Below, piece after piece: positions 2,805 through 62,960 of a stretch of DNA of 64,000 nt. The DNA comes from Anaerolineae bacterium (GTDB lineage: Bacteria > Chloroflexota > Anaerolineae > J102): positions 6,490-70,489 of the forward strand of contig JALXCB010000044.1 of assembly GCA_026991225.1 (NCBI GenBank). The letters are read 5' to 3'. Both the position numbers and the translations under genes were made by a program. The notes below the pieces were generated by a model, which saw nothing but the letters and a program-made list of their open reading frames with translations, made no database searches and was not told the origin of the DNA. Within the stretch, counting starts at the first letter, position 1, and every line of letters starts with the position of its first letter.

Positions 2805-3944
2805 ATGAACCGCACGCATCTCCGTTTCCTCCCTCCCCTGCTTTTGGCCGCACTGGTGGCCCTCCTCCTGGCCGGGCTGGCCGCGGCGGGCGGGCCGGGC
2901 GTCGGGCCCGCGGCCGCGCCCCGCCTCGATCCCCCCGCGCCCGTCAACATCACCTTCGACAGCGACGTTTGGAGCGTTGCAGTACAAGAGAACTATGCTT
3001 TCGTAGGACTGGAAAAGGGGGGCGTCATCATCCTCGATATCACCAATCCTCTCCGTCCCACCGTCGTGAGCACGTTCGATGATCCTGATTCCTATGGCTT
3101 GTATTATGTGGATGACCTCTTCCCCAACGGGGATATCCTGGTCATTCCAGTCGGTTCTGTCTTCTATATCGTCGATATCAGCGATATTACCCACCCGTCC
3201 TGGCTCAGTTATCGCCATCCCGCGGCTTACGAACTGAAGGCCATGGCTCTTTACGACCAGCGGGCTTACGGCCTGGGGCCGGATTCCTTCGAGATTTGGG
3301 ACCTCCAGGACCCCTCCTCGCCTCAGTTGTTGTACGGCATGCGGGATCAGTACCACCGCCTCTTTGCGGATATGCAACAGATCGCGGTCGCTCGCAACCC
3401 CGCAGATGGCCGCATCTACGCCTACATGACCGGCGAGCCCCTCTGTTTCCACGACTGCGTAGGCAATGGCCTGGTTTTCATGGATGTCACCGACCCCTCC
3501 CAGCCCCAAGTCGTCTACACTTCAAGGTGGAATGGAGTCACGCTGGCCGCCCAAGAGGAGTATCTCTATTGGAGCGATTCGGATGCCAGTTTGCAAATCC
3601 TTGGTCTTACCGACCCGCGACAACCAGAACTGTTAAGTCGCATCGATTTAGCCGATATTGGCTTTGCGATGGATAGGAAGGGGAATAGGCTTTTCCTTGC
3701 CCTGGCATACGGAGAAGATGGCCAGATCGATGTTATAGATGTGACTAACAAGACGAAGCCCACTTCCATGACAAGGTATGAAGACGTGAAACACGGGAAA
3801 AGTCTATCTCATTCGGATGAAACAGGCTGCCTGTTCGTGGCGGAGCTTAGCCGCGGCCTGCGCATCCTTTGCGACATCAACGCCAATCCGCACCCCCCCG
3901 CCCTGGTCTGGCTGCCTATGGTGCAGGCCCGGTTTGAGCGATGA
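2805..3944 (+). CDS. secreted LVIVD-repeat protein, tandem paralog 2
   Basis: Near-identical signal peptide and C-terminus VWLPMVQARFER to paralog 1; LVIVD repeats. Confidence 0.75.
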   Translation: MNRTHLRFLPPLLLAALVALLLAGLAAAGGPGVGPAAAPRLDPPAPVNITFDSDVWSVAVQENYAFVGLEKGGVIILDITNPLRPTVVSTFDDPDSYGLYYVDDLFPNGDILVIPVGSVFYIVDISDITHPSWLSYRHPAAYELKAMALYDQRAYGLGPDSFEIWDLQDPSSPQLLYGMRDQYHRLFADMQQIAVARNPADGRIYAYMTGEPLCFHDCVGNGLVFMDVTDPSQPQVVYTSRWNGVTLAAQEEYLYWSDSDASLQILGLTDPRQPELLSRIDLADIGFAMDRKGNRLFLALAYGEDGQIDVIDVTNKTKPTSMTRYEDVKHGKSLSHSDETGCLFVAELSRGLRILCDINANPHPPALVWLPMVQARFER

Positions 3945-4183
3945 AGGCAGGAAGGCCAGAGGTCAGAGGTCAGAACCACAGAGGTCAGAGGCCAGAAGGC
4001 CAAAAGGCCAGAAAGCCAGAGGGCCAGAAGGTCAGAGGCCCGGCCCCCTGAACACTGAAAACTGAACACTGAACACTCCCCCACCTCCCCTGAAACCCCC
4101 ATTGACAATTAGCCATTGACAATTAGCCATTGACAATTAGCCATTGACAATTAGCCATTGACCATTCCCCAAAGGAGCCTCCC
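3945..4183. repeat. same intergenic cassette, third copy (about 11 nine-mer units, about 4.5 14-mer units)
   Basis: CATTGACAATTAGC repeated 4 times plus a partial unit at 4100-4165. Confidence 0.8.
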
Positions 4184-5317
4184 ATGAACCGCTCGCATCT
4201 CCGTTTCCTCCCTCCCCTGCTGCTGGCCGCACTGGTGGCCCTCCTCCTGGCCGGGCTGGCCGCGGCGGGCGGGCCGGGCGTCGGGCCTGCGGCCGTCCCC
4301 CGCCTGGATCCCCCCGCGCCCGTCAACATCACCTTCGACAGCGACGTCCTTTCCGTGGCCGTCCAGGGCGATTACGCGTATGTGGGTTTGGAAAAAGCAG
4401 GCGTAGCCGTTCTTGACATTTCCGATCCCTTGCACCCCATTATCATAAGCACCTTCGATGATCCCGATCCTTCCGGGCTGAATTATGTGGATGAGCTCAT
4501 TCCCAATGGGGATATCCTGATCATTCCCTATGGCTCTGTCTTTTACGTCGTCGATATCAGCGACCCCGCTCATCCCGCCTGGCTCAGTTATAGTCATGAT
4601 GCGGCTTACGAACTGAAGGCCATGGCCCTTTACGACCAGCGGGCTTACGGCCTGGGACCGGACTCCTTCGAGATTTGGGACCTCCAGGACCCCTCCTCGC
4701 CCCAGTTGTTGTACAGCATGCGGGATCAGTACCACCGCCTCTTTTCGGATATGCAGCAGATCGCGGTCGCCCGCAACCCCGCAGATGGCCGCATCTACGC
4801 CTACATGACCGGCGAGCCCCTCTGTTTCCACGACTGCATAGGCAATGGCCTGGTTTTCGTGGATGTGACCGACCCCTCCCAGCCCCAAGTCGTCTACACT
4901 TCAAGGTGGAATGGAGTCACGCTGGCCGCCCAAGAGGAGTATCTCTATTGGAGCGATTCGGATGCCAGTTTGCAAATCCTTGGTCTTACCGACCCGCGAC
5001 AACCAGAACTGTTAAGTCGCATCGATTTAGCCGATATTGGCTTTGCGATGGATAGGAAGGGGAATAGGCTTTTCCTTGCCCTGGCATACGGAGAAGATGG
5101 CCAGATCGATGTTATAGATGTGACTAACAAGACGAAGCCCACTTCCATGACAAGGTATGAAGACGTGAAACACGGGAAAAGTCTATCTCATTCGGATGAA
5201 ACAGGCTGCCTGTTCGTGGCGGAGCTTAGCCGCGGCCTGCGCATCCTTTGCGACATCAACGCCAATCCCCAACCCCCCGCCCAGGTCTGGCTGCCCCTAA
5301 TTGGAATCCAGGGATAG
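4184..5317 (+). CDS. secreted LVIVD-repeat protein, tandem paralog 3
   Basis: Same signal peptide; 3' two-thirds almost identical at DNA level to paralog 2 (3296-3944 vs 4675-5270). Confidence 0.75.
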   Translation: MNRSHLRFLPPLLLAALVALLLAGLAAAGGPGVGPAAVPRLDPPAPVNITFDSDVLSVAVQGDYAYVGLEKAGVAVLDISDPLHPIIISTFDDPDPSGLNYVDELIPNGDILIIPYGSVFYVVDISDPAHPAWLSYSHDAAYELKAMALYDQRAYGLGPDSFEIWDLQDPSSPQLLYSMRDQYHRLFSDMQQIAVARNPADGRIYAYMTGEPLCFHDCIGNGLVFVDVTDPSQPQVVYTSRWNGVTLAAQEEYLYWSDSDASLQILGLTDPRQPELLSRIDLADIGFAMDRKGNRLFLALAYGEDGQIDVIDVTNKTKPTSMTRYEDVKHGKSLSHSDETGCLFVAELSRGLRILCDINANPQPPAQVWLPLIGIQG

Positions 5318-8574: not shown

Positions 8575-8595
8575 AAACGCCTGTTGCGAGGTAAC

Positions 8596-8735
8596 TACCT
8601 TGACAATGTCACATTACGTCATTCCGAGGGAGCGAAGCGACCGAGGAATCTAGCCCGCAGGGCGCTTCGCTAGATTCCTCCGCCCTTCGGTCGTCGGAAT
8701 GACGTGCTTGGAGGTAATTTGACATTGTCGAACTA
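8596..8735. repeat. large imperfect palindrome / stem-loop downstream of the 1108-aa gene
   Basis: Arms GGTAACTACCTTGACAATGTCACATTACGTCATTCCG and its imperfect reverse complement flank an internally palindromic loop (GAGGAATCTAGC...GCTAGATTCCTC). Confidence 0.6.
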
Positions 8736-8744
8736 CTCAGGTGT

Positions 8745-8949
8745 CGCCACCACTTTTTGCCGCGAAGACACGAAGGAAACGAGGGCGCAAAGTCATCCAA
8801 AAAAGGTAACTGCTAAGGTAGTTGGCCCCAATCGCCCCTTTTTTGCCACGAAGACACGAAGGAAACGAAGGCGCGAAGTCATTCAAAAAAGATTTTATCC
8901 GTGTTTCCTCGTATCCGTGTCGAGTGAACAGGGCTACGTTAGCAGTTAT
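8745..8949. mobile_element. MITE-A variant copy (8806-8949) preceded by a partial tandem half-copy (8745-8805)
   Basis: GTAACTGCTAAGGT ... ACGTTAGCAGTTAT; internal sequence matches the outer element at 24178; lies between convergent gene ends. Confidence 0.7.
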
Positions 8950-15100: not shown

Positions 15101-15458
15101 GCCCATCACCGCCCGCGTGCCCATCACGCAACCCGACGGCACGGTCACGTACGAACAACGTCCCATCAGCACGGTCGAGGCCGATCCCGACGATCCCAAT
15201 CGCATCATTCTTACTGCCACCAACGGTTTCGGCATCATCCACGACACCAAAGGTTACACCGAAACGCACGTCATCAAGGCCGTGGCCTACGACGTGGCCG
15301 GAAACAAGGCCGAAAGCCAGCCCGTGCGCATCTTCGTCATCCACAAGGAAGGCAAAGGTCCCAAGCCGCGCGGGCAGGAAGGCCGCCTCCCCGATCTGGA
15401 TGACCCCACCCGTTACGCTCTCCGCCCCATTGTATCATGGAACGAACGGCATCTTTGA
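12120..15458 (+). CDS. bifunctional class A penicillin-binding protein (PBP1A: GT51 transglycosylase + transpeptidase) with long C-terminal Ig-like extension
   Basis: GT51 motifs ALEDRSFWENPGIN, SSITQQLVKN; transpeptidase SSFKP (SxxK) and KTGTT; ~400-aa C-terminal extension. Confidence 0.9.
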   Translation: MKRLTDQATSRLTDHPMNLPSKIYLHRRRQERLHRAQMPAWQKLLGVAAIALFVFITLTVTATASVAAVAGGVYYYFTRNLPDPSAIVTKQENFETVKIYDRTGKVLLYESIDPRPFRGDRTYVTLDQISPYLINATVALEDRSFWENPGINLRGIGRAFVQNLQGGAIQGASSITQQLVKNVIIPPEERYQRSYTRKIKEMLMALKITQKYDKTQILEWYLNNNFYGNFSYGIESAAQTYFGKPAKDLNLAEAAMLAALPQFPGLNPIQAPEDAKRRQRKVLQAMVEAGYITQEQADEAYAQELDVRESALERFDNDIAPHFALYVLDQLKKEFNTPEDPYFIWRNGLTVRTTLDVDIQHYVTCVARQRVAHLAHEDPTIPGCPDLDPEPFLQSGKHSKIDHNVSNAAVVVLAPKTGEILSMLGSLDYNNREIDGEVNIALADRQPGSSFKPITYLTGFSQGLTAATVAWDVRQVFPDAVEPYTPENYDRKYHGPVPLRVALQRSYNIPAVWVMSQVGVKNVVNMAHRLGVTSLNKDYYGLSLTLGGGEVKLLDMAYVFATFANMGVMKGEPVLPQDLRPGYRTLDPVAILEVKDREGNIVKEYEGPQEQRVISEQLGYLLDNVLSDPRPRPPAFGTFAQYLELPDRPIIAKTGTTNDFRDGWTLGASPQYAVGVWVGNADNTPMESTSGSVGASPIFHDIMAYLHKDKPVEKWEEPDGFVRRTVCYESGLLATDICPRRYTEIFIDGTEPKEYDNFWQVFEVNKLNGKLATPYTPPDLIERRVYPVFPPVAKDWAQEQAELGKIQLPPTEYDDTFGPVFTDEEVAIAKPAPFSYIKGQVEIWGNARSGDFRLYQLHFGQGLQPQTWTQIGPDHYNQVDKGVLEYWDVSGLSGPYTLRLSVVENSGNVRQVAIPITVDNTPPTVVLSTPENGKVYVKEDDEWVNINALATDDWAMDRVVFYLDDTPLITTTVSPYSAKWTITMSDTVPTLDMEPITARVPITQPDGTVTYEQRPISTVEADPDDPNRIILTATNGFGIIHDTKGYTETHVIKAVAYDVAGNKAESQPVRIFVIHKEGKGPKPRGQEGRLPDLDDPTRYALRPIVSWNERHL

Positions 15459-15808
15459 TGCATACGCCATCGGCGATACCCTTTCTGGATGAAATCGTCG
15501 CCCGATTAGAAAGCATCGATCCAGAGAAAATCATCCTTTTCGGCAGCCAGGCGGAAGGTCGCGCCGACCCATGGAGCGATTTGGACCTGATTGTTGTGAC
15601 AAGCGACGACCGAATGCCTGCTACGTATCGGGAGAAAGAAGAAATTTACCTGCAAGTCTCGCGCCTGATTCGAGACATCCGACAGAAAATCCCCATCGAT
15701 CTCATCGTGCACACCCGGCCCATGCATGAGCGCTTTCTCACCATGAACAGTCTCTTCGCACAAGAAGTCCGGGAAAGAGGCCTGGTGCTCTATGAAAAAG
15801 ACCACTGA
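15458..15808 (+). CDS. minimal nucleotidyltransferase (MNT) antitoxin-type protein
   Basis: LFGSQAEGRADPWSDLDLIVV nucleotidyltransferase motif; ATG overlaps PBP stop (TGATG). ORF-track alternative start 15437. Confidence 0.75.
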   Translation: MHTPSAIPFLDEIVARLESIDPEKIILFGSQAEGRADPWSDLDLIVVTSDDRMPATYREKEEIYLQVSRLIRDIRQKIPIDLIVHTRPMHERFLTMNSLFAQEVRERGLVLYEKDH

Positions 15809-16187
15809 AGAATGGCTGGCCAAGGCCGCGGAAGACCTTTTGGCTGCGGAACTCCTGCTATCGCAATGGGAACTGACCAATATCGTGGCTTTTCATGCGC
15901 AGCAAACGGTTGAAAAGGCGTTCAAAGCCGCGATTGAAGAACTGGAACTTGGTCTAATTCGCACCCACAGTCTGACGCGACTCTACCAGCTCATCGAATC
16001 AGAATTTCCCGTAGTTGATGACCCTGACATGTTAGACCGTCTTGATGCGGTTTACATTGAGGCGCGCTATCCCAGCGAGCTTGGCCTGATCCCATCGGGC
16101 AAACCAACCAGTGAGGAAGCGGCTGCTTTTCATGCGTTTGCCACCCGTGTTTTGAAGCAGATTCAAACAGCCCTGACCCAACGCTAA
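15792..16187 (+). CDS. HEPN-domain protein (partner of MNT)
   Basis: 131 aa helical protein with GLIRTHSL HEPN-like motif; overlaps MNT gene end. Confidence 0.75.
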   Translation: MKKTTEEWLAKAAEDLLAAELLLSQWELTNIVAFHAQQTVEKAFKAAIEELELGLIRTHSLTRLYQLIESEFPVVDDPDMLDRLDAVYIEARYPSELGLIPSGKPTSEEAAAFHAFATRVLKQIQTALTQR

Positions 16188-22659: not shown

Positions 22660-22835
22660 CGTTGCGTTGGTTTGCAAAAGCAACTCGAAGCCCGCGTTGG
22701 GCGAGTCTGCAACGGGCGTGATGCGTGAAAACGTGGAACGTGAGAGCGTTACGCATCACGCATTACGCATCACGTGCTTGGCTTCCCGCGCGGCCCTGGC
22801 CGCGGGGCGTTTTCGTTCGTCTCGGCGAACCGCCG
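22660..22835. repeat. family-B REP-like element (CGTGATGCGTGAAAACGTG...TTACGCATCACG hairpin core with GGCCGCGrGGCGTTTTCGTTCG tail)
   Basis: Homologous copies at about 24525-24665 (inverted), 42083-42240, 42425-42525 (inverted), 43720-43830, 45035-45180, 57060-57215; degenerate variants at 10860-10930, 38870-38990, 63120-63195. Confidence 0.75.
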
Positions 22836-23080: not shown

Positions 23081-24181
23081 GTGTTCGATCGGATTTTTCG
23101 CATCCTTGGACTTATCGTTTTCGCCATCATCGGATGGGAGATCGGCGTCATCATGACGGGCGTCTCGAATCCCCTGCAGGACCTGGAATCGCTGAAGTAT
23201 GTGGCGCCTTTGACGTTGGTTGGGGCCGTGGTGGGGTGGATCATCGCTCCCTGGATTACAACCCGCCCCGCGCGTTACGCCATTCGGGTGGTGCGGCAGA
23301 TACCCATCGAGGAAGTCATCGCCGGCAGCATCGGCCTGATCCTGGGCCTGATCGTCTCCGCGCTGGTGGCCATCCCCCTGGCCAAACTGCCCCCGCCCTT
23401 CGGGCCGATTCTGCCCTTCATCGCCAGCATTGTCTTCGGCTACCTGGGCGCGCTCATCCTGGTGTTGCGCCGGGATGATCTGGTGAAGCTGTTCCGTTCC
23501 TTCCAGAAAGAGCGCGGCGATCAGGCCGTGACGACGGAGGATGCGGTCGCACCCGCTCCCTCCCCTCTGCCCCCCGGCCCGACGCCCTTGCTCCTCGACA
23601 CCAGCGTCATCATCGACGGCCGCATCCTGGACGTGGCCAAAACCGGATTCCTTCCCGGCCCCTTGCTGGTCCCCCGCTTCGTCCTCTCCGAACTCCAATA
23701 TATCGCAGATTCCTCCGACGCCCTGCGGCGGGCCCGCGGGCGCCGGGGACTTCAGGTGCTGGATGATCTCCAGAAGCTGGACAGTCCCAGGCTGGAGATT
23801 GTGGACCTGGACGCGCCCGACGTGAAGGAGGTGGATGAGAAGCTCATGGCCCTGGCCCGTCAATATGGCATCGGCATCGTCACCAACGACTACAACCTCA
23901 ACCGGGTGGCTGCTCTCCAGGGCGTGAAGGTGCTCAACCTGAACGATCTCGCCAACGCGGTGAAAGCCATCTACCTGCCGGGCGAGCATCTGCGCCTGCG
24001 CATCATCCAGGAGGGCAAGGAGCCCGACCAGGGGGTGGGCTATCTGGAAGATGGCACCATGGTGGTCGTCGAGCGCGGCCGCGACCTCATCGGCCAGGAG
24101 GTGGAGCTGGAGGTGACCAAAGCCTTGCAGACCAGCGCCGGGCGCATGATCTTCGCCGCGCCCGTGCGAGATTCCGAGTAA
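23081..24181 (+). CDS. PIN/TRAM-domain protein (YacL-like)
   Basis: N-terminal TM helices, central PIN domain, C-terminal TRAM-like domain; stop codon lies inside the inserted MITE. Confidence 0.75.
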
Positions 24182-24471
24182 CCGCTAACGTAGCCCTGTT
24201 CACTCGACACGGATACGAGGAAACACGGATAAAATCTTTTTTTGTAACTGCTAACGTACCCCGGTTAACAAACCACAAAGGGCACAAAGGCGCCAAGAAC
24301 ACGAAGAAAAAAATGTATAAATTCCCCTTTGTGCCTTTGTGTCTTCGTGTTCTTAGTGGTTTTCGGGTGATGACCTTAGTAGTTACCTTTTTAAATGACT
24401 TCGCGCCTTCGTTTCCTTCGTGCCTTCGTGGCAAAAGAGGGGCTACTGGGGCCAACTACCTTAGCAGTTAC
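24178..24471. mobile_element. composite MITE-A: outer variant copy (TSD GATTCCGA) carrying a nested MITE-A (24244-24386)
   Basis: Outer TIRs GTAACCGCTAACGT / ACCTTAGCAGTTAC with TSD 24170-24177 = 24472-24479; inner element has its own TIRs and a degenerate CTTTTT flanking repeat; the outer body matches the copy at 8806-8949. Confidence 0.75.
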
Positions 24472-24714
24472 GATTCCGAATCCAATTTCCACGGCCGGTA
24501 GCGCGCAAAGCCGGCGATACGAGCAACGGCTCGCCGATGCGAACGAAAACGCCTCGCGGCCAAGTCGGCGCGGGAAGCCAAGCACGTAATGCGTGATGCG
24601 TAACGATCTCACGTTTCACGTTTTCACGCATCACGTCCGTAGCAGACTCGCCCAACCTCGTCCTGGCGTTCCTCAATCCTAATCCTGATCCTACTCCTAT
24701 TTATCAAAGCAGCC

Positions 24715-26115: not shown

Positions 26116-26243
26116 TCTTTATCCAATTGGGGGAACGCTGATGCCGCAGATGGAATGGATGAACTCAGATAAGCATTGAGGGAGTCATCTGCGAAAATCT
26201 GCGTCGCATCAGCGTTCATCAGCGTTCTCATTTCAAACATTTC

Positions 26244-27439: not shown

Positions 27440-27649
27440 ATGTCTGCACGAGAACAAGGCACCGTCAAATGGTTCAACGCCAGCAAAGGCTACGGCTTCA
27501 TCGCTCGCGATGATGGCGAAGACGTCTTCGTCCACTTCTCCGCTATCCAGATGGATGGCTTCCGCACCCTGGAAGAGGGACAGCGCGTCGAGTTTTCCGT
27601 CGAGAGCGGCCCCAAAGGGCTCCAGGCCCGCGACGTCACCGCCATCTAA
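27440..27649 (+). CDS. csp: cold-shock protein (CspA family)
   Basis: [36 protein letters not shown]; SD TAGGAG; long structured 5' UTR. Confidence 0.95.
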
Positions 27650-27681
27650 ACTAAACGCATTTTGAAATCAGGTGTTTTCGG

Positions 27682-27836
27682 GTAACTGCTAACGTACTTG
27701 ACTTTAGACCGCCAAAAGCCACGAAGGCTCGAAGTTTTTCGAAGCCACGAAGGAAAAAATAAAGAAAAATACGTCGTGCCTTCGCTTTTCTTCGTGTCTT
27801 CGTGGCAAAAAGTGGTCGCGATACCTTAGTAGTTAC
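27682..27836. mobile_element. MITE-A copy (155 bp) with 8-bp TSD GTTTTCGG, inserted in a family-E repeat
   Basis: TIRs GTAACTGCTAACGT / ACCTTAGTAGTTAC; direct repeat 27674-27681 = 27837-27844; the uninterrupted family-E copy at 60293-60475 (reverse complement) has a single GTTTTCGG at this point. Confidence 0.85.
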
Positions 27837-28117
27837 GTTTTCGGCCTTGGCCACCCGGAGCTGAAACTCCGGGCTACGAAACGACGCCGGGTGAACCCGG
27901 CTTTCCGCGGCGCGCGACATGCGCCGTAGCCCCATTGATGGGGCGTCGTTATTAGCCCGCAGGTGAACCTCGGGCGGCGGTGCGGCCAGAGAATCGCCTT
28001 TCATGGATGATCCAATGCAAATCAAAAGCCTTGGTTTCAATTTGCTTTCAGTTTAATGCGTTGAATGCAGACGGATGCCTCACTCGATAGCATCCATTTA
28101 TCTGCTATCATCACGCG

Positions 28118-29963: not shown

Positions 29964-30013
29964 TGGACATGGTGCAATCTTTGTAGTACAATTGTATTGC
30001 AAAGAGGTGCAAA

Positions 30014-30313
30014 ATGACCGAGTTCATCACGACAAATATCCGTCTTCCAGTACAATTGCATCGCGAGCTAAAACGTCGCGCGGCGGAGGAGAACAAAAGC
30101 ATGGCGCAAGTGTTGCGCGAGGCTGCGGTGCAATACATCGCGTCAGCCAAAACTTCCAATCACGAGGAGATGGAAGCAAGAGATGATGATCCTTTGTGGC
30201 TGATCGGGACTGATCCTGTGGATCTGGGGGTGACGGATGCTTCCGTGAACCACGATGTCTATCTTTATGGTCCGCTTTCGGATTCGGCCAAAGCTGAGAT
30301 CACAGAAAAATGA
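30014..30313 (+). CDS. ribbon-helix-helix-type antitoxin (VapB-like)
   Basis: NIRLPVQLHRELKRRAAEENKSMAQVLREAAVQY RHH pattern; 4-bp overlap with PIN gene. Confidence 0.55.
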   Translation: MTEFITTNIRLPVQLHRELKRRAAEENKSMAQVLREAAVQYIASAKTSNHEEMEARDDDPLWLIGTDPVDLGVTDASVNHDVYLYGPLSDSAKAEITEK

Positions 30314-30729
30314 GACCCCTTTTCGTTGATACCGCAGCCTGGTTGGCATTGGAATCTCGAAGGGATCAATACCATGATGTCGCCTTTGCGTTTGCACAAA
30401 ATCAGGCACGAGCATTTCAATGGGTCACGACGAATTGGATATTATCCGAAACCGTGACGATGCTACGCAGACGCGCCAACCATGCCATTGCCGTCCGTTT
30501 TATGGAGCGAGTGCGCGCAAGTAAACGATTGCAGATTGTACGTATTGAGCCTCCCCACGAGGAAAGAGCCTGGGTAATTTTCAAGCGTTATGCCGACAAA
30601 GACTTTGGATTTGTGGATTGCACCAGCTTTGCCGTTATGGAGACCTTTGGCATTGCCGAGGCCTTTTCGTTTGACCATCATTTCCGGCAATTTGGATTTC
30701 AAACGCTTCCCCTTCATGCGTTGAGGTAA
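30310..30729 (+). CDS. vapC: PIN-domain toxin VapC
   Basis: [23 protein letters not shown]...; stop 2 nt before the start of the MCM B12 subunit. Confidence 0.75.
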
Positions 30730-30731
30730 TC

Positions 30732-31192: not shown

Positions 31193-32215
31193 ATGACCCC
31201 ATCCACCGTCCCCGAACTCGTCGACGCCCTGCTCGCGGGCAACCGTCGCGCCCTGGCCCGCGTCATCTCCCATATCGAAAACAACACCGACCTGGCCCGA
31301 CCTCTCCTGGCCGCGCTCTATCCCAGGGCGGGGCGGGCGCACATCATCGGCGTCACCGGCTCTCCCGGCACGGGCAAATCCACCCTGGTCAACGTCCTGG
31401 CCGGGGTCTATCGCCAGCGCGACCTCACCGTGGGCGTCATCGCCATCGACCCCACCAGCCCCTTCAGCGGCGGCGCCCTGCTGGGCGACCGGGTGCGGAT
31501 GCGCGATCTGGCGGGGGATCCAGGCGTATTCATTCGATCCATGGCCACGCGCGGCAGTCTGGGCGGGCTGGCCCAGGCCACCGCGGACGTGATCATGGTG
31601 CTGGACGCGGCCGGCTTCGACCGCATCATCATCGAGACGGTGGGCGTGGGGCAGAGCGAAGTGGAGATCGCCAGCGCCGCCTACACCACCGTCGTGGTGG
31701 AAGCCCCCGGCCTGGGGGATGAAGTCCAGGCCATCAAGGCAGGCGTGCTGGAGATCGCGGATATCTTCGCCGTGAACAAGGCGGACCGGGAGGGCGTGGA
31801 CCGCACGGTCATGGCCCTGAAAATGATGCTCAGCCTGGGCGCGCCCGAGAAGTTCCAGGTGATGCATCATGGCCGGATGCTGCCCGTGGAGATTCCCCAG
31901 GCCCGGACGGAGTCCCATGCCTGGACGCCTCCCATCATCAAGACCATCGCCGTCTCGGGCGAAGGCGCGGTCGAACTGGCCGACGCCATCGAGAATCACC
32001 GCCTCTATCTGGAGCAGAGCGGCGGTCGGGTGTTGCGAGATCGACTGCGGGCCGCCACCGAGCTGCGCATGATTTTGCGCGATTACCTGCTGGAAAAACT
32101 CCTGGCCCGCACGCCCGAAGACGTGCTGAAACAGACCATCGACGCCGTCGCCCGCCGTGAGATCGATCCCTACACCGCGGTGCAACAGTTGGTCGATCAA
32201 GTTCGTAACTGCTAA
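31193..32215 (+). CDS. meaB: methylmalonyl-CoA mutase-associated GTPase MeaB/ArgK
   Basis: GVTGSPGTGKSTLVNVL P-loop; last three codons and stop lie inside a MITE. Confidence 0.9.
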   Translation: MTPSTVPELVDALLAGNRRALARVISHIENNTDLARPLLAALYPRAGRAHIIGVTGSPGTGKSTLVNVLAGVYRQRDLTVGVIAIDPTSPFSGGALLGDRVRMRDLAGDPGVFIRSMATRGSLGGLAQATADVIMVLDAAGFDRIIIETVGVGQSEVEIASAAYTTVVVEAPGLGDEVQAIKAGVLEIADIFAVNKADREGVDRTVMALKMMLSLGAPEKFQVMHHGRMLPVEIPQARTESHAWTPPIIKTIAVSGEGAVELADAIENHRLYLEQSGGRVLRDRLRAATELRMILRDYLLEKLLARTPEDVLKQTIDAVARREIDPYTAVQQLVDQVRNC

Positions 32216-32358
32216 GGTCGCGCCGCCGCTTTTTGCCACGAAGACACGAAGAAAACAAAGGCACGACGTATTTTTCTTTATTTTTTCCTTCGTGGCTTCG
32301 AAAAACTTCGAGCCTTCGTGGCTTCTTGTGGCCTTAAGTCGAGTACGTTAGCAGTTAC
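32205..32358. mobile_element. MITE-A copy with TSD TCAAGTTC, inserted in the last codons of meaB
   Basis: TIRs GTAACTGCTAAGGT / ACGTTAGCAGTTAC; TSD 32197-32204 = 32359-32366; meaB stop TAA lies in the TIR. Confidence 0.85.
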
Positions 32359-38846: not shown

Positions 38847-39231
38847 CGGTTTTGAAAAATAACTTCGCGTTCGTTTACACAAGCAACTCAAAGCCAACGT
38901 TGGGCGAGTCTGCTACGGGCGTCAAACGTCATACGTAAAACGTCAGGACATGACGCATGACGTTTGACGCTGACCGACTGACAAAACGTTGCCTATGCGT
39001 TTGCCGTGTCCCTTTGCCCCCTCCCCGGCCCTTATATGATAAAGCGGGGTGAGGATATATGATAACCGTGTCATATAACTCATCTCCCCCGATACTCGCT
39101 CCGTTCGTGTTCGAGAGAAGGGGACGCCCGAAGCCAGTCAGTTTTCACGAAATAAGCGCTTCTTACCGGGCGAAAACATGTCCCCTGCCCTTCGCTCCTT
39201 TTGACCTCGCTACGTTGGTAGCTACGCCTGC

Positions 39232-42059: not shown

Positions 42060-42316
42060 AGCGTCCTCCTGTTTCGGAAGTGGCGTTGCGTTGGTTTACA
42101 AAAGCAACTCGAAGCCCGCGTTGCGCGAGTCTGCAGCGGACGTGATGCGTGAAAACGTGAAACGTGAGAGCATTACGCATCACGCATTACGTGATTGACT
42201 TCCCGCGCCAACCTGGCCGCGAGGCGTTTTCTGCATCCCAGGATACCCCCCAACCATTCACAAAATGTGATGCGAATGTAAAAAATGTGTCATCCCCCGC
42301 CGCCCAACGGACAAAG

Positions 42317-42390
42317 TGGGGCCCCTCGGGCTTGAACCGAGAACCGGCGGTTTATGAGACCGCTGCTCTAACCACTTGAGCTAGGGCCCC
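42317..42390 (-). tRNA. tRNA-Met (anticodon CAT)
   Basis: Reverse complement folds as cloverleaf: acceptor GGGGCCC/GGGCCCC, anticodon loop CTCATAA, T-loop TTCAAGC; CCA not encoded. Confidence 0.85.
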
Positions 42391-42576
42391 CTATGTGGTT
42401 GCACGCCCCATCGAAAAAACGCTTTGTTGGCGCGGGAAGCCGCGTCGTGAAACGTGATGCGTGATGCGTAACGTTATCACGTTTCACGCATTACGTTTCA
42501 CGTGAGTTGCCGCCTCGGCCAACTTTGGCTTGACGAACCTTTCGCCATCTGCGCCAACGCGCTATCTTCAAAGAAG

Positions 42577-42647
42577 AGCGGGCAACGGGATTCGAACCCG
42601 TGACGAGAGCTTGGAAGGCTCTAGTGTTACCACTACACCATGCCCGC
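42577..42647 (-). tRNA. tRNA-Gly (anticodon TCC)
   Basis: Acceptor GCGGGCA/TGCCCGC, anticodon stem AGAGC/GCTCT with loop CTTCCAA, T-arm GGGTTCGAATCCC. Confidence 0.85.
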
Positions 42648-42792
42648 GCGGAAAACAGTCATCCGTGATGGACATAGAAATTCTACACAGGATCGCGGGA
42701 AATGACAAGTCGAGAAGGAGCACAGATCACAATCTCCCTTCTCTGTGTTCTCTGTGCGATCTCAGTGAACTCGGTGTTCCTCTTTCAAAAAA

Positions 42793-42866
42793 GTCGGGGA
42801 GGCCGGATTCGAACCGACGACCTCTTGGACCCAAACCAAGCGCGCTACCGAACTGCGCTACTCCCC
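42793..42866 (-). tRNA. tRNA-Pro (anticodon TGG)
   Basis: Acceptor CGGGGAG/CTCCCCG, anticodon stem CTTGG/CCAAG loop TTTGGGT, T-arm GTCGGTTCGAATCCGGC. Confidence 0.85.
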
Positions 42867-42872
42867 GATGGG

Positions 42873-43001
42873 AGTAACTGCTAACGTACTCGACTTCAGG
42901 CCACAAGAAGCCACGAAGGGGAAAATAAAGAAAAATACGTCGTGCCTTCGTTTTCTTCGTGTCTTCGTGGCAAAAAGCGGCGGTGCGACCTTAGCAGTTA
43001 C
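42873..43001. mobile_element. MITE-A short variant (129 bp) with TSD CGATGGGA, 6 nt from the tRNA-Pro 5' end
   Basis: TIRs GTAACTGCTAACGT / ACCTTAGCAGTTAC; TSD 42865-42872 = 43002-43009. Confidence 0.85.
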
Positions 43002-43656: not shown

Positions 43657-43855
43657 TCTCTGGAAGTTGTCATTTGGAATGAAAAGCGCGCGCCAGCAAG
43701 ATGGGCGCGGGCAGCCAAAGCCGTGAAACGTCATGCGTGATGCGTGACCATCTCACGCGTCACGATTTCACGCATCACGCCCGTTGCCGCCTCGCCCAAC
43801 GTCAGCCTGGCGGGCCTTTCGCAGACGGCGCCAACGCTCTGGACGAAACAGCACC

Positions 43856-44992: not shown

Positions 44993-45224
44993 AGATGGAG
45001 TGATCGCTGGTCGTTGAAGGATCGCCAGGATTACGTTGGCCGAGGCGGCAACGGGCGTGATGCGTGAAAACGTGATACGTGAGGTCTTCACGCATCACGC
45101 ATGACGTTTCACGTCCTTGGGTTCCCGCGCCACACGGGCCGCGAGGCATTTTCATCGGTATGGGCGAGCTTTCGCCTGTGTCGACCGATTTGTAAGCGGA
45201 TGCGTCCCAAATTATTGGCAGACA

Positions 45225-45360
45225 TTTACCGAGTAAACTCGGGCTCTTTAGGCGCTTCGCGCCAGTGGTCGCCCTTCGGCGACCATTTGTTGGCATAATT
45301 CTGGACGGCGTAGACCGTCCACTGGCCGCAGGCCTGAAGAGTTCGACTTCAGTCGGCTGG
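45225..45360. repeat. family-F repeat (CGAGTAAACTCGGGCTCTTTAGGCGCTTCGCGCC...GTCCACTGGCCGCAGGCCTG...)
   Basis: Second copy at 62770-63100 interrupted by a MITE-A. Confidence 0.7.
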
Positions 45361-52382: not shown

Positions 52383-52535
52383 GTAACTACTAACGTACTC
52401 GATTTCAGGCCTCGAAAAGCCACGAAGGCTCGAAGTTTTTCGAAGACACGAAGGAAAAATAAAGGAAAAACTTCGTGCCTTCGTTTTTCTTCGTATCTTC
52501 GTGGCAAAAAGCGGTGGCGAGACCTTAGTAGTTAC
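52383..52535. mobile_element. MITE-A copy with TSD AAAAAATC, inserted in a family-C repeat
   Basis: TIRs GTAACTACTAACGT / ACCTTAGTAGTTAC; TSD 52375-52382 = 52536-52543. Confidence 0.85.
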
Positions 52536-52738
52536 AAAAAATCTGTGAAAATCATCTGCGAAAATCAGCGTCGCATCCGCATTATCAGCGTTCTCCTTTT
52601 CATCCGTATCGGCGAGCTGTCGCTCGGGCCGAGTGCGTTGAAGATAGAAGGGCAGGCTTGCGACGTTGGCGGGCGGCTTTGTACAATAGCGAAGACATTT
52701 CCAACCCCTCATTCCCTATCCAGACACGCCAACATCCC

Positions 52739-55019: not shown

Positions 55020-55115
55020 CGTTCCGAAAAGAAAAAAGCTGTGAAAATCATCTGCGAAAATCAGCGTCGTATCCGCGTCATCTGCGTTCCCATTTTCATC
55101 CGTATCGGCGAGCTT
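55020..55115. repeat. family-C repeat (GAAAATCATCTGCGAAAATCAGCGTCG...CCATTTTCATCCGTATCGGCGAGCT)
   Basis: Copies at 52536-52625, 26150-26230 (partial), inverted partial at 52262-52375; shares the ...TTTTCrTyCGTATCGGCGAGCT module with family B. Confidence 0.7.
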
Positions 55116-57013: not shown

Positions 57014-57282
57014 GTTGGCCTCCTGCTTTGAAAATAGGATTCGGATTGAGGATCGTCAGGACAACGTTGAGCGAGCCTGCAACGGACGTGATGCGTGAAA
57101 ACGTGAAACGTGAAGGCCTTACGCATCACGCATTACGTTTCACGGGCCGGCTTCCTGCGCGGCCCTGGCCGCGATGCGTTTTCGTTCGTATCGGCGAGCT
57201 TTGGATCAGGGTGCTCGCTTCAAAGAAAAAGGGGATGGCAGCAAACGGCGACCATCCCCTGAGTCAGCGATAGAACGGCGGA

Positions 57283-59544: not shown

Positions 59545-59697
59545 GTAACTACTAAGGTCGCGACACCACTTTTTGCCACGAAGACACGAAGAGAACGAAG
59601 GAGCGAAGCCTTCTTCTTTATTTTTCCTTCGTGTCTTCGTAAAACTTCGAGCCTTCGTGGCTTCTTACGACCTAAAGTCGAGTACGTTGGCAGTTAC
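59545..59697. mobile_element. MITE-A copy 30 bp upstream of the SH3-protein gene
   Basis: TIRs GTAACTACTAAGGT / ACGTTGGCAGTTAC; imperfect flanking repeat GAACTTAT / GAACTATC. Confidence 0.75.
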
Positions 59698-60292: not shown

Positions 60293-60475
60293 CGTAGACC
60301 AGCCGCCGCCCGCAGGTGAACCTGCGGGCTAAAAACGACGCCCCATAAATGGGGCTATGGCGCATGTCGCGCGCCGCGGGAAGCCGGGTTCACCCGGCGT
60401 CGTTTCGTAGCCCGGAGCTTCAGCTCCGGGTGGCCGAGGCCGAAAACACCTGATTTCAAAATGCGTTTAGTTTAA
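60293..60475. repeat. family-E repeat (~180 bp, internal hairpins CCGGAGCTGAAGCTCCGG and CCCGCAGGTGAACCTGCGGG)
   Basis: Second copy at 27650-28000 in opposite orientation, interrupted by a MITE-A. Confidence 0.75.
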
Positions 60476-62796: not shown

Positions 62797-62960
62797 GTAA
62801 CTGCTAAGGTATCGCCACCACTTTTTGCCACGAAGACACGAAGAAAAGCCAAGGCACGACGTATTTTTCTTGATTTTTCCTTCGTGTCTTCGAAAAACTT
62901 CGAGCCTTCGTGGCTTTTGGCGGCCTAAAGTCAAGTACGTTAGCAGTTACAAACTCGGGC
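62797..62960. mobile_element. MITE-A copy with TSD AAACTCGG, inserted in a family-F repeat between HMGCS and thiolase
   Basis: TSD 62789-62796 = 62961-62968; the uninterrupted family-F copy at 45225-45360 has a single AAACTCGG. Confidence 0.85.

Follow-up and report, generated by a model that had tools for sequence, protein, structure and literature searches.

Insertion sequences (IS) of the IS66 family are recognised by an 8-bp target-site duplication (TSD) combined with ends that start with GTAA, a signature that we afterwards checked on ISDge4, on an element of pHTA426 and on metagenomic relatives. ISDge4 of Deinococcus geothermalis, a member of the ISBst12 group, encodes a single transposase of 449 amino acids (aa), has been observed experimentally to transpose and is bounded by the ends GTGACTACTCAGCA and GTAACTGCTCAGCA with an 8-bp direct repeat CCTCGATG (PMC12898284). 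The ISBst12-group element of Geobacillus kaustophilus pHTA426 has the ends GTATCTATTCAGCCCA and GTAACTATTCAGCCCG, the TSD GACGAGTT and a 485-aa transposase with DDE_Tnp_IS66, zf-IS66 and DUF6444 domains. Two metagenomic relatives carry the ends GTAACTGCTCAGCCTG (1598 bp) and GTAACTATTCAGCC (1583 bp), the latter (P0027 element, locus L066) with the TSD ATAAAAAG; in both of them the right end includes the stop codon of the transposase, and an IST.(R/K)K motif is found 78-90 nt inside. Here we describe MITE-A, a family of short repeats in a 64,000-nucleotide stretch of an Anaerolineae bacterium (GenBank assembly GCA_026991225.1, contig JALXCB010000044.1, positions 6,490 to 70,489 of the forward strand; hereafter the window, in whose own numbering all window positions are given). 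The evidence presented below makes it very probable that MITE-A copies are non-autonomous DNA transposons, namely MITEs (miniature inverted-repeat transposable elements), on which a DDE transposase from the IS66 family's ISBst12 group acts in trans.

A search of the window with the MITE-A terminus GTAACTRCTAASGT, allowing up to two mismatches, yielded 19 matches as compared to 0.19 expected from shuffled sequences. These matches pair into nine full elements, and one broken copy is present in addition, giving a density of about one copy per 6.5 kb and a share of 2.2% of the window sequence. The initial annotation had described eight copies of 129-165 bp; the family itself is borne out, while the count is nine full copies (a nested one included) plus the broken one and the measured lengths are 128-155 bp, with 294 bp for a nested composite. 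Most of its coordinates stand as given, except that the start at 42873 is to be read as 42874 and the end at 62960 as 62950. The GC content of the elements is 43-48% as compared to about 60% for the window. MITE-A is non-coding, and the open reading frames (ORFs) overlapping its copies, which had already been taken for spurious calls, are without independent support. A tblastn search with IS66-type and DDE_5 transposases found no transposase in the window, as had also been stated.

The two ends of the element are not equivalent, a property that had gone unnoticed in the initial annotation. Of the 14 positions of the termini, 13 are complementary, the exception being position 12 with its C/G mismatch; over 37 aligned copies the termini are invariant, or nearly so. 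Every element has one A end with C at this position (C12; GTAACTGCTAACGTA) and one B end with G (G12; GTAACTRCTAAGGT).

Perfect 8-bp duplications flank six of the nine full window copies, and they are identical to those listed earlier. The copy at 27682-27836 (plus strand, main subfamily, 155 bp, 44% GC) reads from its A end to its B end, starts with GTAACTGCTAACGT and finishes with ACCTTAGTAGTTAC; GTTTTCGG is present at both flanks, and the insertion lies within another repeat, 33 bp past the stop codon of a cold-shock gene. Three further main-subfamily copies with perfect TSDs are located at 32205-32358 (minus strand, 154 bp, TCAAGTTC), 4 nt ahead of the original meaB stop codon, at 52383-52535 (plus strand, 153 bp, AAAAAATC), at the T-rich end of a repeat of another family named REP-C, and at 62797-62950 (minus strand, 154 bp, AAACTCGG). 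At 42874-43001 (plus strand, CGATGGGA) we find a 128-bp deletion variant without two of the left-arm modules, which lies 6 bp from the 5' end of tRNA-Pro. The sixth perfect TSD, GATTCCGA, belongs to the composite at 24178-24471 (plus strand), a copy of the 8806-type with a nested copy in its central A/T loop.

In the remaining three full copies the duplication is imperfect or missing. It has decayed to GAACTTAT / GAACTATC around the main-subfamily copy at 59545-59697 (minus strand, 153 bp), and it matches at 6 of 8 positions (CTTTTTTT / CTTTTTAA) around the nested copy at 24244-24386 (plus strand, 143 bp), a member of the CACAAAGG variant subfamily. No TSD is seen for the 8806-type copy at 8806-8949 (minus strand, 144 bp), which has one mutated terminus (ATAAC...) and lies inside the loop of an older copy. 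The B-end half of this older copy is present at 8733-8805 (minus strand), while its first 8 nt (GTAACTAC) are at 8591-8598, separated from it by a different MITE (8599-8732) that has inserted at CTAC. A lone degenerate terminus without a partner was also seen at 39212-39225.

Uninterrupted targets corroborate these duplications. Three of the insertions (27682, 52383 and 62797) each lie within another repeat family, and an uninterrupted copy of the host repeat elsewhere in the window contains the 8-mer only once. The empty counterpart of the 27682 insertion is at 60440-60447 (minus strand), a single GTTTTCGG in the intact host repeat copy 60303-60474, and the filled and empty sites are 94.8% identical over 172 bp across the junction. 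That of the 62797 insertion is at 45235-45242 (plus strand), where AAACTCGG occurs once, and for the 52383 insertion the empty site at 55032-55039 (plus strand), in the REP-C copy 55028-55114, reads AAAAAAGC against AAAAAATC. All three empty sites reported earlier are therefore real, one of them with a single mismatch in its 8-mer. In a similar manner, the host of the nested 24244 copy is 95% identical over 143 bp to the uninterrupted 8806 copy.

An orthologous empty site is provided by a sister species, whose genes are 82-84% identical to those of the window at the nucleotide level, stand in the same order and include an identical cold-shock protein. At the junction of meaB and prs in this species (loci L117 and L121) only 17 nt separate the two genes, and the site at the meaB stop codon is clean. 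Excision of the 32205 element together with one 8-mer from the window restores a MeaB ending in ...LVDQVH*, followed by the conserved GGAGGAT ribosome-binding site. The filled allele of the window ends in ...LVDQVRNC*; because the element has inserted 4 nt before the stop codon, MeaB now finishes with ...DQVRNC* instead of ...DQVH*. No MITE-A terminus is present in the sister-species loci L117 (13.4 kb), L121 and L122, and the window has four copies over the corresponding stretch. Since the two species separated, the family has clearly moved.

MITE-A is not restricted to the organism of the window. A scan of species-representative genomes for paired termini, with a pattern that detects short elements only, matched at least 52 loci, and among the matches listed all are in five metagenome-assembled genomes (MAGs) named "Anaerolineae bacterium". 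Since two genes common to the window and those MAGs are only 74-78% identical at the nucleotide level, the window organism represents a further, related lineage, and the family is present in at least six species-level lineages. Element lengths range from 128 to 180 bp across the window and the MAGs. Clustering separated a main subfamily (with 154-, 142- and 128-bp forms), the 8806-type, a 'Y' type whose AACCTGACAGGTT core is unrelated, and one singleton; these subfamilies have only the termini in common. Nested insertions are common, and both orientations occur. Main-subfamily copies within the window are no more alike (mean identity 0.886) than copies from different genomes (0.885).

The TSDs of the whole family tell the same length. 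In a set of 68 elements, made up of those in the window and those in the five MAGs, the MAG part coming from the at least 52 matched loci, the 8-bp duplication is perfect in 44, has one mismatch in nine and two mismatches in seven, and no other length fits. Lone termini of the types 'X' and 'Y' in the MAG loci were considered as possible IS ends and proved to belong to further MITE subfamilies, the X ends sitting at contig ends. Among the 390 kb of MAG loci there is no pair of termini 200-8000 bp apart with a TSD, apart from nested MITEs.

Autonomous elements with the MITE-A terminus were found in metagenomes. The scan pattern consisted of the MITE terminus, a spacer of 63-93 nt and the reverse complement of the IST.(R/K)K motif, and it has no match in the MITE DNA examined. 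Out of 17 matching loci, seven are ends of IS66-type (ISBst12-type) IS; the other ten were discarded as chance matches, comprising three distinct AT-rich sequences that recur across samples. Two complete IS (L079, 118-1677; L082, 99-1658) are 1560 bp each, with GTAACTACTAAGGT(AG) at both ends and one 485-aa ORF, which in L079 contains the domains PF03050 (2.5e-45), PF13005 and PF20042. Further full IS are present in L096 (1581 bp), L112 (1578 bp) and L116 (1581 bp). All five are bounded by GTAACTACTAAGGTA and contain a single ORF of 485-491 aa, without tnpA/tnpB, and the transposase stop codon (CCT TAG) lies within the right terminus. Relatives at 61-80% amino-acid identity measure 1578-1581 bp and have the same 15-nt ends, and one of these is on a contig of MAG GCA_027029025.1. 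The MITE A end resembles the left end of these IS, while the B end is of their right-end type.

Several IS families produce 8-bp duplications, and no ISBst12-type gene lies beside any MITE. It might therefore be argued that a transposase of another such family (IS256, ISL3, IS6 or IS1595) mobilises MITE-A and that the match to the ISBst12 terminus is coincidental. We consider this highly improbable. A terminus of 14-15 nt is identical in five divergent ISBst12-type IS lineages (61-100% amino-acid identity), and its first 9 nt are common to ISDge4 and the P0067 element. A chance 14-mer in the right geometry is expected only a few times over the entire collection, and the three chance sequences that were seen are clearly apart from the IS matches. 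With high confidence, the predicted mobiliser belongs to the ISBst12 group, and it is at the level of this group that we identify it; the exact parent was not found among the IS sampled. The initial annotation had proposed non-autonomous elements moved by a transposase that makes 8-bp staggered cuts, and this proposal is strengthened by the TSDs, the filled and empty pairs, the empty site of the sister species and the autonomous IS with an identical 14-nt terminus.

A shortened IS was seen in L090 (103-460). It is an internally deleted ISBst12-like element whose short ORF joins the first 25 aa of the transposase to the last ~65 aa; the right end of the element is intact and its left end unrecognisable. 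It may represent an intermediate between IS and MITE, of the kind from which MITEs arise.

Several observations link these IS with the lineage of the window. In L076 an IS end adjoins REP-C at the same relative position as the MITE at 52383, with the duplications GATTTTTC and GATTTTTT, and REP-C is present in the sister species too. The sister-species contig (L106/L121) and the IS of L082 come from the same JGI metagenome (Ga0256835). The transposases of L095 and L079 share a 90% cluster, and L095 (ERZ27262647) is from the same ENA assembly series as L002, a contig 99.9% identical to the window.

Other observations weigh against assigning MITE-A to an ISBst12-group transposase. No contig among the loci examined carries both an IS and MITE-A, and neither the window nor the ~390 kb of MITE-bearing MAG loci contain a transposase; that the IS reside in the same genome as the MITEs is something we infer from the indirect links above. 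In all sampled IS both ends carry G12, in contrast to the invariable C12 of the MITE A end, and therefore the exact parent is not in hand. Just inside the terminus, three MITE A ends look like IS left ends over positions 15-25 (AGCCCTGTTCA versus AGCCCAGTTTA in one case), but most comparisons over positions 15-60 stay within the range of shuffled sequences, and similarity between IS and MITE past about position 25 is not significant. None of the eight IS contigs with both flanks shows an 8-bp TSD, which we assume is probably due to chimeric short-read assembly of a multicopy element. The IS found are close autonomous relatives and not a demonstrated parent; judged from their sequences, they or a close relative would be the elements that mobilise MITE-A. 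Three more connections were considered and dropped. When the MITE ends are translated in the reading frame set by the IS stop codon, no likeness to transposase C-termini is seen; CGAA motifs near the IS left ends, at only 1-3 per 110 nt, are too weak to be connected with the modules of the MITEs; and the flank of an IS in L099, thought to lie inside a MITE loop, is merely T-rich DNA.

Has the family kept its mobility up to the present? Seven contigs or more from other samples or MAGs (L001, L002, L104, L107, L108, L118 and L123), which match the window at 99.5-100% identity, share with it all insertions in the overlapping parts, and the family now appears to be largely quiescent in this genome. 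The description of the elements as active-looking was consequently overstated: copies differ by 5-15%, near-identical strains share their insertions, the window has no transposase and the exact parent is not among the IS sampled. One could go further and regard MITE-A as a fossil family that was spread by a past ISBst12-type transposase and has no functional partner left, its copies being immobile with well-preserved scars. The main-subfamily copies of the window are only 85-95% identical to each other, a perfect TSD is wanting in 24 of the 68 elements, and the shared insertions and the lack of a transposase in the window and MAG loci point in the same direction. However, the overlap at strain level amounts to only ~13 kb and the part of the genome examined to 64 kb, and multicopy IS are usually lost from MAG bins. 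Moreover, intact IS with these termini are present in the same sample series (L095, ERZ27262647; L116 in a MAG of the same accession series), and two thirds of the TSDs are still perfect. We therefore regard a fossil state as a serious possibility, somewhat short of an even chance.

The insertion sites are informative about the choice of target. A target logo was built from 44 sites with perfect duplications, oriented from the A to the B end. The duplicated 8-mers are 60% A+T as compared to a background of 40.6%, and a run of four A or four T is present in 14 of the 44 TSDs as compared to 3.7% of background 8-mers. At its first position the TSD has G or C in 75% of the sites, and at its second A or T in 80%. 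Outside the duplication, a G at position -2 is mirrored by a C at +2, and A/T-rich positions occur about 7 nt away on both sides. Such two-fold symmetry would fit a transposase multimer that acts on both strands of a bent target. Surviving insertions are intergenic or in the last codons of genes, and they are often inside other repeats or older copies, with the A/T loops of the latter and the T-rich ends of the former as recurrent targets.

Taken with the preferred assignment to an ISBst12-group transposase acting in trans, these observations suggest the following mechanism. The transposase would recognise termini of ~14-16 bp (A end, GTAACTGCTAACGTA; B end, GTAACTRCTAAGGT) and would insert the element via 8-bp staggered cuts. 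A/T-rich targets would be preferred in a two-fold symmetric context, with a G two bases before and a C two bases after the duplication. Subfamilies with unrelated interiors would use the same termini, each interior being predicted to fold into a long imperfect hairpin.

As the initial annotation had expected, a long imperfect hairpin is predicted for individual copies, with folding z-scores between -3.3 and -7.5. Its CCACGAAGG / CTTCGTGG modules do pair, each module being individually inverted; the two arms are not mirror images in the variant subfamily, where the CACAAAG and CACTAAG modules are each inverted in the right arm without reversal of their order, and the variable positions therefore mismatch in the hairpin. 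The mean column identity of the main subfamily is 92%. Only one pair with changes on both sides was found as compared to 2.3 in shuffled alignments, and the covariation score (0.035) is not above that of the shuffles (0.036) or of slid controls. Rfam at the gathering threshold reports only three tRNAs in the window and no match for MITE-A. A structured RNA gene with covariation, which had been named as the finding that would speak against a mobile repeat, is thus not what we observe; the hairpin follows from the inverted modules, and we see no evidence for a conserved RNA.

It may still be asked whether selection now maintains these elements of mobile origin because the hairpin serves the host, for instance as a transcript end or attenuator, as a small RNA or, through its CGAAG modules, as an array that binds a protein. 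The strength of the predicted hairpins would be in agreement with such a role, as would insertions directly after stop codons and in an operon junction; furthermore, copies from different species are as alike (~88%) as copies within a genome, and two host genes are only 74-78% identical. Against this stand the lack of compensatory changes, the unmirrored module order of the variant subfamily with its mismatched variable positions, the absence of an Rfam match and the occurrence of both orientations. In 9 kb scanned, main-subfamily copies contain no promoter- or terminator-like site and the counts are not above those of shuffles, the nested copy having one weak terminator-like match (24281-24294). 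In addition, the corresponding junctions of the sister species lack the elements. We consider a host function of this kind unlikely.

A further idea is that the individually inverted CACGAAG-type modules, spaced about one helical turn apart, could be binding sites for the transposase or a host protein, which would keep the family ~88% identical across Anaerolineae-like species whose genes are ~75-84% identical; the invariant C12/G12 asymmetry might then mark functionally distinct left and right ends. This idea is speculative and improbable. Repeated horizontal transfer between these species could be an alternative source of the same ~88% identity pattern.

The window's intergenic DNA is pieced together from small repeats of at least five families. 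The MITE at 8599-8732 that has split the older MITE-A copy is unrelated to MITE-A, measures ~134 bp, has the ends (C)TTGACAATGTCACATT ... AATTTGACATTGTCGAA and sits at CTAC inside the MITE-A terminal repeat. The same ends bound an IS of ~1.56 kb in L095 (~141-1698), which encodes a 490-aa DDE_5 (PF13546) transposase and has inserted at the same CTAC of the left end of an ISBst12-like IS, with a 4-bp duplication; such ends were also noted in L003 (~193) and L005 (~184). REP-C (...CGATACGGATGAAAA.G.GAACGC.GAT...CAGATTTTTT) occurs in the window at 52536-52625, 55028-55114 and 26185-26229, and elsewhere in L076 (4288-4373) and in the spacer between the cold-shock and mutase genes of L103/L106, so that the sister species has it too; insertions of both MITE-A and the IS recur at its T-rich end. 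The host repeat of the 27682 insertion (27647-27681 plus 27837-27980, versus 60303-60474) is ~170 bp long, 94.8% identical between its copies and GC-rich, with internal hairpins. Further dispersed intergenic repeats, with 82-93% identity, are located at 24530-24620, 42155-42231, 22731-22828, 57093-57199, 45062-45107 and 43728-43773. A G-rich repeat with GGGGGAGG...CCTCCCCC hairpins is present at contig ends of L003, L004, L005, L032, L041 and L048, as well as in L015 (6364-6526), and apparently breaks MAG assemblies. Within the MITE at 27682, a segment of 21 bp (27743-27763) contains four of the 15 differences between the window and L002, the window there resembling copy 32205, which suggests assembly mosaicism or gene conversion between MITE copies.

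Some neighbouring genes deserve mention. A cluster of tRNA-Met, tRNA-Gly and tRNA-Pro occupies 42316-42867 on the minus strand, with tRNA-Pro at 42793-42867; because only 6 bp separate the 5' end of tRNA-Pro from the MITE at 42874, located upstream of it, the tRNA precursor or the promoter must accommodate this copy. The ORFs at 1505-2635, 2805-3944 and 4184-5317, three in tandem and 376-379 aa long, are apparently paralogous, as judged from short exact matches between them. Directly after a penicillin-binding-protein gene, a nucleotidyltransferase and HEPN gene pair (15437-16187; L001, 744-1473) looks like a toxin-antitoxin system. In L120, from a strain in a sister sample, a gene for a 139-aa PIN-domain protein (3562-3981) lies between the methylmalonyl-CoA mutase and B12-binding genes, and its place in the window (~30000-30730) is taken by a different short ORF on the opposite strand.

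MITE-A explains much of the AT-richer intergenic DNA in this lineage, flags spurious ORFs and accounts for contig breaks and small assembly mosaics in related MAGs. Its roughly 70 natural insertion sites concern the little-studied single-ORF ISBst12 branch of the IS66 family, for which they yield a symmetric target consensus, minimal ends of ~14-16 bp and an invariant difference between left and right ends. Several MITE subfamilies, unrelated but for their ends, appear to exploit one transposase lineage across at least six uncultured species. The understanding of MITEs in general is unchanged by these results.

MITE-A has the traits of a prokaryotic MITE, as it is short, non-coding, dispersed in multiple copies and bounded by terminal inverted repeats (TIRs), with a TSD of fixed length and matching empty sites. 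Two other kinds of small repeats were considered and rejected. REP/BIME repeats (associated with RAYT / TnpA-REP) are palindromes of 20-40 nt with a GTAG/CGTC head and no TSD, whereas MITE-A measures 128-180 bp and has 14-nt inverted termini and 8-bp TSDs; palindrome-associated elements of the IS200/IS605 type have subterminal hairpins with neither TIRs nor TSD, whereas MITE-A has both. The open-access literature searched contains no described MITE family derived from IS66/ISBst12, which is weak evidence of absence. The ISBst12 group, represented by ISDge4 and the pHTA426 element, shares with MITE-A a terminus that starts with GTAACT(G/A)(C/T)T and the 8-bp duplication. It differs in having one transposase ORF of ~450-490 aa with DDE_Tnp_IS66, zf-IS66 and DUF6444 domains, while MITE-A encodes nothing and is about ten times shorter, and from position 10 onwards the MITE-A terminus reads AA(C/G)GT in contrast to CAGC(A/C) in the characterised elements; IS with the exact MITE-A terminus are known from metagenome contigs only. 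Canonical IS66 elements with tnpA, tnpB and tnpC, such as ISPsko1 and ISPa75, also have termini starting with GTAA and, like the partner transposase, the DDE_Tnp_IS66 domain (PMC12888890). However, their termini are GTAAGCG... or GTAACCGTCC... and they comprise three ORFs in 2.3-3 kb, as compared to a single ORF in 1.56 kb for the relatives of MITE-A among the IS. MITE-A is a well-supported yet ordinary kind of mobile element, albeit unusually dense and with several unrelated subfamilies. It can be compared with MITEPsy1 of Pseudomonas syringae, which is likewise non-coding, 100-230 nt long, provided with IS-like TIRs and a duplication of fixed length, mobilised in trans (as proposed for MITE-A) and inserted at gene ends and in other mobile elements (PMC3189936). 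MITEPsy1 is IS5-like, duplicates 4 nt at CTAG or YTAA and has a handful of copies, while MITE-A is IS66/ISBst12-like, is flanked by 8-bp duplications, reaches about one copy per 6.5 kb in the window and is spread over six or more species-level lineages.

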